A DNA stretch of 35,013 bases, from positions 1 through 35,013 of the IMG/VR virus record IMGVR_UViG_2534681831_000020. One strand, 5' to 3'. This stretch comes from a virus. Lineage: Duplodnaviria > Heunggongvirae > Uroviricota > Caudoviricetes. Under the pieces are notes generated by a model, which made no database searches, was not told where the DNA came from, and saw only the letters and a program-made list of their open reading frames with translations. The first letter of the stretch is position 1, and the number at the start of each line of letters is the position of its first letter. Positions 14,118 to 16,899 of this stretch are shown one piece after another. The translations under genes were made by a program, and so were the position numbers.

Positions 14118-14585
14118 TCACGGTATACACTGGGTACGGATATATTCCTGTGCTCCTTCCAGTTGCTTCTGCATTGCCATCAGCCGTTCTCTGAGGATGA
14201 AATAATCCCGTTCAGCGGCTTCTGCCAGTCGGGGACCGGTTGCATTATCCACGCCGGAGGTGATGGGGGCTTTACGCAAGGAGCCTGGACAGTTGGCGTT
14301 GATCCGCAGGCGCTTACGACCAGCGGCAACATCAGCGCGCAGAGTTTCATTTTCAGCTCTCGCATCGGCTAATTCCCTCGAGTATCTGGCATCAAGTGCA
14401 GCAACATCACGCTGGCGCTGCTGCATATCAGTAATGGTTGCATTTGCCAGCTCCAGCTCACTGACTTTTTTATCGCGCTGCTCTTTGTAGGTTATGGCGT
14501 TATCACGGTAATGATTCAGCCCCAGACTAAGCGCACCACAGGCCACCAGCAGGGCAATGATGACCACGCACAGTACGCGGTTCAT
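14118..14585 (-). CDS. Rz: spanin, inner membrane subunit Rz (i-spanin)
   Basis: Start set at MNRVLCVVIIALLVACGALSLGLNHYRDNAITYKEQRDK...; lambda Rz-like with N-terminal TM helix and coiled-coil region; Rz1 embedded in the +1 frame. Confidence 0.85.
   Translation of the reverse strand: MNRVLCVVIIALLVACGALSLGLNHYRDNAITYKEQRDKKVSELELANATITDMQQRQRDVAALDARYSRELADARAENETLRADVAAGRKRLRINANCPGSLRKAPITSGVDNATGPRLAEAAERDYFILRERLMAMQKQLEGAQEYIRTQCIP
14180..14365 (-). CDS. Rz1: spanin, outer membrane lipoprotein Rz1 (o-spanin), embedded in Rz
   Basis: MRELKMKLCALMLPLVVSACGS... with lipobox LVVSAC and proline-rich CVKPPSPPAWIMQPVPDWQKPLNGII, lambda Rz1-like; entirely inside Rz. Confidence 0.75.
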   Translation of the reverse strand: MRELKMKLCALMLPLVVSACGSTPTVQAPCVKPPSPPAWIMQPVPDWQKPLNGIISSSENG

Positions 14586-14586
14586 T

Positions 14587-14805
14587 TCACCACCAGCGTA
14601 TCTGACCAATGAAATAACCGGAAGCCATAATCACAAACACCAGCCAGATAAGGATGAACTTCCAGGTGGATAATTTTTCAGCCATCATTCGAATCTCCCG
14701 AATCAGTTTGCTAAAATCAAACACACTTTCTCCTTTGACTTTTCCGGAGTCAGGAAACACAAAACCCCACTTGCGGCCAACAAACGGGGTTTTACTTTTA
14801 TTCAC
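14587..14805 (-). CDS. hypothetical small membrane protein between R and Rz
   Basis: 72-aa ORF (GTG start in track; internal MMAEKL start also possible) with one hydrophobic helix FILIWLVFVIMASGYFIG; its stop abuts the Rz start codon. Confidence 0.3.
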   Translation of the reverse strand: MNKSKTPFVGRKWGFVFPDSGKVKGESVFDFSKLIREIRMMAEKLSTWKFILIWLVFVIMASGYFIGQIRWW

Positions 14806-14881
14806 TTAGTTTTTGCCAGTTCGCAGGATTTCGTGTTATCCGCCCGTGTGAGCAAACCGCATTTTCAGCAAAATATTCTGC

Positions 14882-15415
14882 TTATCTGTCAATTCCCCAG
14901 CACGCCAGCGCGCTCTCCTGGTCACGCCGTGAGACCTGACCGTAGCAGTTGTTTGAGCGAATACGGCAGTCTCTGCCGCCGTCCTTAATCCACCAGCGAA
15001 TCGCTTCGCAGGCTCCCCTGCGGTCACCTGCATTAATCCGTCTGTAAAACGTCGACGGGAAACACTTACCGGGGCCAATGTTGTACGGACAGAATGACGC
15101 AATCCCCGCTTTCTGGGGTTCGGTCAGTGGCACTCTGATGTTTTTCTCCACCCATGCCAGCGCCTTATCACGTTCAATGGCGTTAACCTGGTCGCATTTT
15201 TCCTTCGACAGCTTCATGCCAGGAATCACAGGCTTACCATCCACCATGATGGCACCTCGGCAGATGGTCCAGATACCCGCACCATCACGGTATGCCGTGG
15301 TGTGGTTACCTTCCTTTTCATCCAGAAACTGGTCGAGAATGTCAGGCGCAGGCGCACCAGCGGCAATCAGCGCCAGAACGGCAGCCGACAGGCCGTATTT
15401 GATTTTGGTGTTCAT
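14882..15415 (-). CDS. R: endolysin (phage lysozyme) with N-terminal signal-anchor-release (SAR) segment
   Basis: 177 aa; N-terminal weakly hydrophobic, Ala/Gly-rich stretch LSAAVLALIAAGAPAP typical of SAR endolysins, followed by a lysozyme-like body; lies between holin and Rz. Confidence 0.8.
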   Translation of the reverse strand: MNTKIKYGLSAAVLALIAAGAPAPDILDQFLDEKEGNHTTAYRDGAGIWTICRGAIMVDGKPVIPGMKLSKEKCDQVNAIERDKALAWVEKNIRVPLTEPQKAGIASFCPYNIGPGKCFPSTFYRRINAGDRRGACEAIRWWIKDGGRDCRIRSNNCYGQVSRRDQESALACWGIDR

Positions 15416-15457
15416 GGATATTTATCAGGATTTATCGGCAACAGATAACGAGCCAGC

Positions 15458-15880
15458 TTATATACGTCCTTTAAGATAAGTCAGTCCTGGATGAAACCAG
15501 TAAGCCGGCACTTTTTTAAAGGGCGGGTTGTCAAACTCACGAAGAAGAGCCTCCCGCACAACTGCATCCTTGTCCGCACCACTGGCCAGCGCTTCAATCT
15601 CAGCAGCTATCTGCAGATATCCCATGCAACGACCAATGCACTTCATCAGCCCCTGCTTTTTATTGTTCTTCAGGTAATCAATGGCAAATTCAATGAGCAC
15701 CTCACTATGCTGGTGCGATGGCGGTGTTACTTTTCCATTTTCTGAGATGGTTATTTTCCCAGCATCACCGGATACAACAAAGGATGGCCGGTTACACTCC
15801 CATTCCAGCTCACTGAAATTATCATTATGAATACTGAAACACTCTGAGAGATTTCTGCTCATCGCGGCGTTTTTTTTCAT
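15458..15880 (-). CDS. hypothetical protein inserted between holin and endolysin
   Basis: 140-aa ORF in a locally AT-richer segment; no family recognised; weak Shine-Dalgarno; overlaps a 49-aa ORF that has a strong one. Confidence 0.4.
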   Translation of the reverse strand: MKKNAAMSRNLSECFSIHNDNFSELEWECNRPSFVVSGDAGKITISENGKVTPPSHQHSEVLIEFAIDYLKNNKKQGLMKCIGRCMGYLQIAAEIEALASGADKDAVVREALLREFDNPPFKKVPAYWFHPGLTYLKGRI

Positions 15881-15974
15881 CTTCAGAAGGCATCAGCGTC
15901 GACAGTTTTTTATTCAGTTCAGCAATTTCATTTTCCAGACGACTGAAGCGCTGATTCATTTCTTCATGGTTCAT
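15825..15974 (-). CDS. hypothetical 49-aa protein immediately downstream of the holin stop codon
   Basis: MNHEEMNQRFSRLENEIAELNKKLSTLMPSEDEKKRRDEQKSLRVFQYS; the ATG is 3 nt after the holin stop, with GGGGAG about 9 nt upstream; overlaps the 140-aa ORF in another frame across an A8 run. Confidence 0.25.
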   Translation of the reverse strand: MNHEEMNQRFSRLENEIAELNKKLSTLMPSEDEKKRRDEQKSLRVFQYS

Positions 15975-15977
15975 CAC

Positions 15978-16193
15978 CTAATCTCCCCGGGCAGCCTTGC
16001 GACGGTCCTCTTTAATTTTGAAATACAGGTTAGTCAGATACGTCAGCAGGCCAAACAGCAGACTCCCCAGCACACCTATCGCCACCCACTGGGACGGAGA
16101 GACTTTGTCCAGCAGCTGCAGTAACCAGTATCCCGTCCCCACCGCTGACGTGGTGTATGACACACCTGTTGTGATTTTTTCCATCTGGTACAT
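15978..16193 (-). CDS. S: holin, phage-21 S-like (pinholin class)
   Basis: 71 aa, [71 protein letters not shown], close to the 71-aa S21-type holins of lambdoid prophages as I recall them; paired with a SAR endolysin. Confidence 0.85.
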
Positions 16194-16762: not shown

Positions 16763-16860
16763 AATTTCTTTCCGTTATTGTTGACAATAAGAACTGTTTT
16801 CATTTAAAAAACCAGAGCACGAAAGTATCGTTCCTTTATTTTTTCTCCATAGGTATTACC

Positions 16861-16897
16861 ACCGCCAGCGTCCATTCCTGTCGCTGGCGGTTTTTTT
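16861..16897 (+). terminator. GC-rich hairpin followed by T8 (intrinsic terminator in the + direction) abutting the nanS-like stop codon
   Basis: accgccagcg-tccattcctgt-cgctggcgg-tttttttt; the T-run is on the plus strand only. Confidence 0.4.
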
Positions 16898-16899
16898 TA

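Follow-up and report, generated by a model that had tools for sequence, protein, structure and literature searches.

Organization of the holin-lysozyme interval

The window analyzed here is the whole 35,013-nt stretch of viral DNA in IMG/VR record IMGVR_UViG_2534681831_000020, within which we focused on the interval between a holin gene and a lysozyme gene. The features of this interval are as follows, the annotation of the broken gene and its fragments being the one argued for below.

15978..16193, minus strand: holin of the P21 S type (class II), 71 aa; Pfam PF04971 (Phage_holin_2_1), E 8.5e-33
15983..15988, minus strand: GGGGAG Shine-Dalgarno sequence, 8 nt upstream of the ATG at 15974, read directly from the sequence
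15458..15974, minus strand: probable frameshifted pseudogene in its entirety, a 185-codon PHROG 1085 gene minus 41 bp
15825..15974, minus strand: 5′ fragment of 49 codons, comprising 40 native codons and 9 out-of-frame codons (KSLRVFQYS) before a TAA
15458..15880, minus strand: 140-codon ORF (ORF140)
15461..15853, minus strand: 3′ fragment with the conserved C-terminal domain, corresponding to parent codons 55 to 185, now in the +1 frame
15870..15877, minus strand: A8 run (T8 on the plus strand), of wild-type, in-frame length
15855..15863, minus strand: deletion junction, with the single remaining copy of GATGAGCAG
14882..15415, minus strand: lysozyme (endolysin), 177 aa; Pfam PF00959 (Phage_lysozyme), E 5.2e-24

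The holin has a counterpart in Escherichia coli O111:H- str. 11128 that is annotated as "class II holin family protein," and the N-terminus of the lysozyme displays an Ala/Gly-rich hydrophobic stretch that looks SAR-like. As read from the sequence, the 3′ end of the holin gene contains the ribosome-binding site of the next gene, and the ATG of the 49-codon ORF at 15974 lies 3 nt past the holin TAG. The native part of this 5′ fragment encodes a coiled-coil helix (MNHEEMNQRF...RRDEQ). The 49-codon ORF and ORF140 overlap by 56 nt in different frames, with the overlap spanning the A8 run, and the lysozyme gene starts 42 nt beyond the stop codon of the pseudogene. An earlier reading made from the letters of the window alone (the sequence-only reading) had placed the ORFs, the GGGGAG site and the A8 run correctly; all of them are on the minus strand, in the interval from the P21-type holin to the lysozyme. 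Its view that cargo separates holin and endolysin is also borne out: the holin stop and the lysozyme ATG are 562 nt apart, and extra cargo occupies the gap between pinholin-type holin and endolysin in this prophage group.

Scanning for promoter- and terminator-like sites returned none within 15458..15977, and the Rfam scan had no match in the same range. Plus-strand ORFs in the region (for example, 15491..15745) were considered and dismissed as antisense, the homology on the minus strand accounting for the sequence. Elsewhere in the window, at 16822..16898 on the plus strand, Rfam reported a sub-threshold match to the enterohemorrhagic E. coli (EHEC) sRNA Esr41 (30.9 bits against a gathering threshold of 102; E 0.0033), located between an esterase gene and a DUF1378 gene and antisense to the late operon. 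On the other side of the lysozyme gene, a gap of ∼297 nt (14585..14881) precedes Rz, while these two genes overlap in E. coli O157:H7 493/89. This gap contains a 72-aa ORF (14587..14805, minus strand), with a match to PHROG 6632 over its C-terminal 45 residues (E 1.7e-29). The ORF may be what is left of ant-type cargo like that found downstream of R in phage 86.

Two ORFs, one protein family

Profile searches, proposed by the sequence-only reading together with structure prediction, matched both ORFs to PHROG 1085. They align to consecutive parts of this one profile, the 5′ ORF (ORF49/50) at positions 117 to 152 (E 4.3e-07) and ORF140 at positions 160 to 296 (E 1.8e-90). The earlier statement that ORF140 has no recognisable family thus holds for Pfam and NCBIfam but not for PHROG. 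The 5′ fragment additionally matches phrog_15975.

An intact allele of the gene is found in E. coli O157:H7 493/89, where WP_001015164.1, a protein of 185 aa, is encoded between the same holin and lysozyme and matches PHROG 1085 with an E value of 7.2e-112. Its gene agrees with the window in position, start codon, ribosome-binding site and A8 run, and differs by three substitutions outside the alignment gap and by possession of an additional 41 bp, by virtue of which it is a single ORF. A megablast search against phage records likewise returned one longer ORF in this slot, encoding 329 aa in Stx2_95, 213 aa in Stx2_12E129 and 268 aa in phage 86.

To see how general this arrangement is, we inspected 89 close-relative loci, in four of which the holin or the lysozyme gene was not located. 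In all of the remaining 85, the gene lies between the two. It is a single ORF of 185, 209, 213, 268, 296 or 329 aa in 69 of these loci; in the other 16, small indels or the 41-bp deletion have split it. Comparing this junction between holin and endolysin genes in relatives had been suggested as a check on the two ORFs. In these close relatives the parent gene keeps the slot, and its C-terminal part is under purifying selection (see below); the two-ORF form is not conserved.

These data bear directly on the original proposal that the 49-aa coiled-coil ORF and the 140-aa ORF are two genuine small genes, translated separately and serving as lysis-time cargo or as a lysis regulator. Both ORFs do exist, the first has a strong ribosome-binding site, and the 49-aa ORF has been annotated as WP_001369338.1 in E. 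coli E2863 and has a PHROG of its own, phrog_15975. Against this stand the match of the two ORFs to consecutive parts of one profile and to one intact 185-aa ORF, and the single ORF in 69 of 85 relatives. Moreover, ORF140 is not preceded by a Shine-Dalgarno sequence, the 49-aa ORF ends in nine residues that stem from reading on in the shifted frame, and IS1203 additionally disrupts this allele in E2863. We therefore regard two separate genes as very improbable. Rather, the minus-strand sequence at 15458..15974 is in all likelihood a single inactivated gene that was broken by a 41-bp deletion, and what had been described as two overlapping pieces of cargo would be the two halves of one 185-codon gene.

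A 41-bp deletion between 9-bp direct repeats

Aligned with the intact O157:H7 493/89 allele, the window differs by three substitutions and a single gap of 41 nt over ∼575 nt. In the intact allele, the sequence GATGAGCAG occurs twice, with the two copies 41 nt apart from start to start, and this pair is the sole direct repeat of at least 8 nt within 100 nt. The window has retained one copy, at 15855..15863. Lost with the deletion are codons 41 to 53 and two bases of codon 54, which shifts the frame by +1; the loss and the frame shift together account for the premature stop at 15825 and for the apparent second ORF. The deleted segment includes the invariant residues C48 and K50 as well as the nearly invariant A42, A43 and F44.

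Deletions between short direct repeats, arising through slipped-strand mispairing or microhomology-mediated deletion, were classically described for lacI. The lesion in the window resembles these in that identical 9-bp repeats flank the lost sequence, one copy is kept, and the length of the loss equals the 41-nt spacing of the repeats. Judging from this repeat signature, one repeat and the intervening sequence would have been removed by either of the two routes, although here, unlike in the classical cases, the event is inferred from sequence rather than observed.

A three-way DNA alignment indicated that the window changes partner at GATGAGCAG, with the sequence to the left being of the Stx2_12E129 type and that to the right of the Stx2_95 type. 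We also reconstructed the presumed undeleted sequence and searched for it in complete E. coli genomes, many of which match it with 99.3% identity.

In the reverse polarity, the short form would be ancestral and the 185-codon alleles considered intact would have arisen by duplication of 41 bp. We consider it unlikely because the longer members of the family, including those with as little as 30 to 38% identity, all read through the deleted region in a single frame.

The A8 run is shared with intact alleles

The A8 run had been suspected in the sequence-only reading, which noted that the two ORFs overlap across it and proposed to re-sequence it. However, the intact alleles have the same A8 run in frame, and the break in the window is the 41-bp deletion. 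As a lesion or a phase-variable site, the run could be ruled out on two grounds, namely its in-frame position in intact alleles and the lack of A7 in complete genomes: among 5,426 complete E. coli genomes, an A7 allele was absent in the deleted as well as in the intact context, the probes giving one-gap matches only. Separately, we noticed that five draft IMG/VR contigs (L024, L033, L034, L058 and L072) show an A7 or A9 run, each of which breaks the frame. Given that the complete genomes are free of such variants, these may be homopolymer sequencing errors or rare slippage.

A further scenario is that the split gene is recoded: the RNA polymerase would drop one A by slippage in the A8 run, or ribosomes would shift by +1 there, so that a fraction of transcripts would yield a 171-aa protein with the coiled coil and the C-terminal domain but devoid of the linker. 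In bacteria, transcriptional slippage is known to occur at homopolymeric A/T runs of about 8 to 9 or more. The run is situated 7 nt upstream of the deletion junction, and changing it to A7 or A10 in silico indeed gives the window allele one uninterrupted ORF of 171/172 codons. Yet, the relatives do not keep a two-frame arrangement but have a single frame; intact alleles read through the same A8 run in frame, so recoding is not what the run was selected for. The rescued product would also be missing the invariant C48 and K50 and the nearly invariant A42, A43 and F44. In addition, no A7 allele was seen among the 5,426 complete genomes, slippage at a run of eight residues is expected to be inefficient, and the gene has been independently destroyed in related strains by indels and IS1203. 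Taken together, we consider recoding quite improbable, and return to the gene inactivated by the 41-bp deletion.

The broken allele is inherited in O111 strains

As a whole, the window shares 99.8% identity with a prophage carried by E. coli O111:H- 11128. In that genome, RefSeq/PGAP annotates ECO111_RS13535 (NC_013364.1, 2561854..2562370) as "hypothetical protein; frameshifted." This locus is identical to the window over 15400..16000, with equivalent coordinates and the same neighbors, and thus without any difference in the gene itself; the RefSeq entry does not state the cause of the frameshift. Pseudogene status has therefore already been flagged publicly for the identical sequence, while what broke the gene, namely the loss of 41 bp between 9-bp repeats, is new here, as is the domain architecture of the parent gene. 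A degraded known gene was precisely what the sequence-only reading had named as speaking against two cargo genes, and a remnant of PHROG 1085, flagged as frameshifted in RefSeq, is what we found.

Elsewhere, the window contains an IS3-like insert of 1.3 kb at ∼20860..22170 that is absent from O111:H- 11128. It carries plus-strand ORFs of 108 and 296 aa in the layout of the IS3 family (IS629/IS1203-like) and sits within an IS66-family element, which itself occupies the usual position of stx, between tRNA genes and a SASA esterase gene. The annotation of the near-identical 11128 prophage lists no stx genes.

We next asked how widespread the deleted junction is, using an 82-nt probe across it against the 5,426 complete E. 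coli genomes and counting matches with full coverage only. By this measure, the junction occurs in 72 genomes. All seven junction matches listed for complete genomes were 100% identical, and the serotyped carriers among the matches listed were O111:H8 or O111:NM. The junction is also found in two IMG/VR contigs. Its occurrence in 72 complete genomes marks it as an inherited allele and not a read error. It is true that this gene is subject to errors or slippage in draft data, as the A7 and A9 homopolymer variants in five draft viral contigs show, which might make one think of a sequencing or assembly artefact of this record. But the lesion is a 41-bp deletion rather than a homopolymer miscount, and its junction is fully covered in 72 complete genomes and present in two IMG/VR contigs, making an artefact next to inconceivable.

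The O111-type strain E. coli E2863 (NZ_AP018802.1) possesses two copies of the gene in different prophages (L090, at 1.526 Mb, and L091, at 2.444 Mb), one with the 41-bp deletion and one without it. Both copies are also interrupted by IS1203.

The parent protein and its family

The 185-codon parent is a late gene that many lambdoid and Stx-type E. coli prophages carry between holin and endolysin. Its protein is soluble and acidic (∼21 kDa; pI 5.8). A coiled-coil helix at the N-terminus is followed by a conserved linker (KKRRDEQFAAF..C.K), and the C-terminal part is an alpha/beta domain with the motif GRCMGYLQ..AEIE...DNPPFKK. The family as a whole is modular: a DUF1327 domain or nothing at the N-terminus is followed by the coiled-coil helix, the conserved linker, a variable insert and the conserved C-terminal domain.

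AF2 modeled ORF140 with a mean pLDDT of 82 and with values of 87 to 97 per 10-residue block from about residue 31 onward, predicting a C-terminal domain with a three-stranded beta meander and four helices. For the intact 185-aa protein, the alignment was shallow and the mean pLDDT was 51.8; only the N-terminal helix was confident in this model (helix at residues 3 to 27 and 31 to 62; pLDDT of 77 to 92 over the first 40 residues), and it was not used for the fold search. The fold of the confident C-terminal domain has no match in PDB or BFVD. Profile searches of PDB sequences produced matches at chance level only (E of at least 0.057), and neither the C-terminal domain nor the intact allele had anything significant in Pfam, NCBIfam or PADLOC. 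No PADLOC-DB defence model was matched at E ≤ 0.1 by the intact allele, the long forms or the distant relatives.

Nor does the protein have the hallmarks of an envelope lysis protein. We looked for a transmembrane segment, a signal peptide and a lipobox and found none of these; the maximum Kyte-Doolittle mean over 19 residues is 0.95, and the AF2 model is that of a soluble helical/beta domain.

Over the C-terminal 115 codons, five alleles gave dN/dS ratios of 0.09 to 0.40, which indicates that the PHROG 1085 family is a functional gene. The family is also narrow, as an exhaustive HMM search of 1.84 billion representatives returned 43 matches only. Clusters drawn from 5.8 billion proteins number 169, with those named by source being from E. 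coli, and a scan of genome contigs recovered three loci only.

Long forms, DUF1327 and YdfR

Several family members are annotated as "YdfR family protein" or "DUF1327 domain-containing protein," among them gp05 of phage 86 (268 aa), BCI50300 of Stx2_95 (329 aa) and 296-aa forms. Like the window gene, these long forms are encoded after the holin and belong to PHROG 1085; their C-terminal domain is 75 to 98% identical, and some share the coiled coil and the linker. Unlike the window gene and the 185-aa form, they carry an N-terminal DUF1327 domain (PF07041; E ∼1e-45), for which a Pfam search found no match in the window ORFs or in the intact 185-aa protein.

An illustrative case is YdfR of E. 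coli K-12 (b1555), which is encoded in the Qin prophage between the holin gene essQ and the lysozyme gene rrrQ, that is, in the same slot as the window gene. However, YdfR shares homology with the long forms in their N-terminal domain only (47% identity over 74 aa). BLASTP gave no alignment between YdfR and the 185-aa form, and hence none to the remnant in the window. The RNase E interactome paper PMC13232886 reports that YdfR binds to the catalytic half of the enzyme and co-purifies with RNA. Given that YdfR has no similarity to the 185-aa form, this result cannot be transferred to the window sequence. In the literature on ydfR, DUF1327, essQ, rrrQ and pinholin, we found nothing relevant beyond this RNase E interactome (PMC13232886), which concerns a domain that is absent from the window.

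One could envisage PHROG 1085 as a late-phase effector module with a new fold that travels around the Q-lysis region of enterobacterial lambdoid phages, sometimes accompanied by PHROG 1853 and linked to RNA metabolism, with the O111 allele being rescued at a low level by slippage; the link to host RNA metabolism might then run via the RNase E-binding DUF1327 domain fused in the long forms. We rate this combined picture as rather far-fetched, on a par with recoding, and continue with the accessory gene that was inactivated by deletion in the window.

Genomic position in distant relatives and a partner gene

In distant relatives (30 to 38% identity), the gene is found downstream of Q and upstream of the holin, so that the slot within the holin-lysozyme pair is specific to the E. 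coli subgroup. The distant loci in question (L093, L094, L096 and L097) are on metagenome or genome contigs and have the gene between the Q antiterminator gene and the holin gene. In three of these four loci, a reverse-oriented hicAB pair adjoins the gene.

In five loci, a conserved PHROG 1853 gene of ∼105 aa comes next after the PHROG 1085 gene, on the reverse strand and in tail-to-tail orientation:

L003:1859-2173, L001:2180-2494, L096:3807-4124, L098:585-902 and L095:2378-2713, reverse strand: PHROG 1853 partners

These partners are 37 to 41% identical between E. coli phages and the distant relatives and share the motif ELSYLDCxWD. Neither Pfam nor PADLOC provided an assignment, with one chance-level match in PADLOC-DB. 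The Stx2-converting phage 86 and Stx2_12E129 have such a convergent partner of 104 aa, which is absent from the window. The pair of PHROG 1085 and PHROG 1853 looks like a two-gene module, of which the window has no partner gene.

As for function, the proposal of a lysis regulator finds no support: the protein has no membrane segment, 16 of 85 loci are broken, IS1203 cuts the gene in some copies, and in distant relatives the gene resides upstream of the holin. Such a distribution is what one would expect of an accessory late gene that is mobile and frequently lost; it does not match a core regulator of lysis. The alternative label given to the locus by the sequence-only reading, a moron or accessory late gene, is fair for the intact family, although the copy in the window is degraded.

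Expected products of the broken allele

On the basis of start signals, ribosomes would initiate at the ATG at 15974, guided by the GGGGAG in the 3′ end of the holin gene, and produce a 49-residue peptide ending at the stop at 15825. The 5′ fragment is thus probably still translated, and the peptide may itself be active to some degree. The C-terminal domain, in the other frame and without a ribosome-binding site of its own, would not be made in any meaningful amount; inspection of the sequence revealed no Shine-Dalgarno sequence before the in-frame ATGs of ORF140 at 15880 and 15862, and it is because of these missing start signals that we predict the C-terminal fragment to remain untranslated.

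In lambdoid phages, late transcription is carried out by Q-antiterminated polymerase, which should read through the untranslated stretch, so no polarity on the endolysin gene is expected. Holin, lysozyme and Rz are all intact in this prophage type. With these genes preserved and late transcription being Q-antiterminated, lysis itself should be unaffected by the deletion.

Implications

The PHROG 1085 copy in the window is very probably dead. As a dead accessory gene of a prophage, it would matter little in itself, and the interest resides in the parent family. Judging by its position, the parent gene would be transcribed with the lysis genes of Stx-type prophages, and it behaves as an accessory late gene, or moron, as opposed to a core lysis component. 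Neither prophage maintenance nor the basic lysis machinery requires it, as its frequent inactivation in lysogens shows. With purifying selection, a C-terminal domain unmatched among solved and viral predicted folds and a conserved convergent partner gene in part of its members, the family is of modest value as a target.
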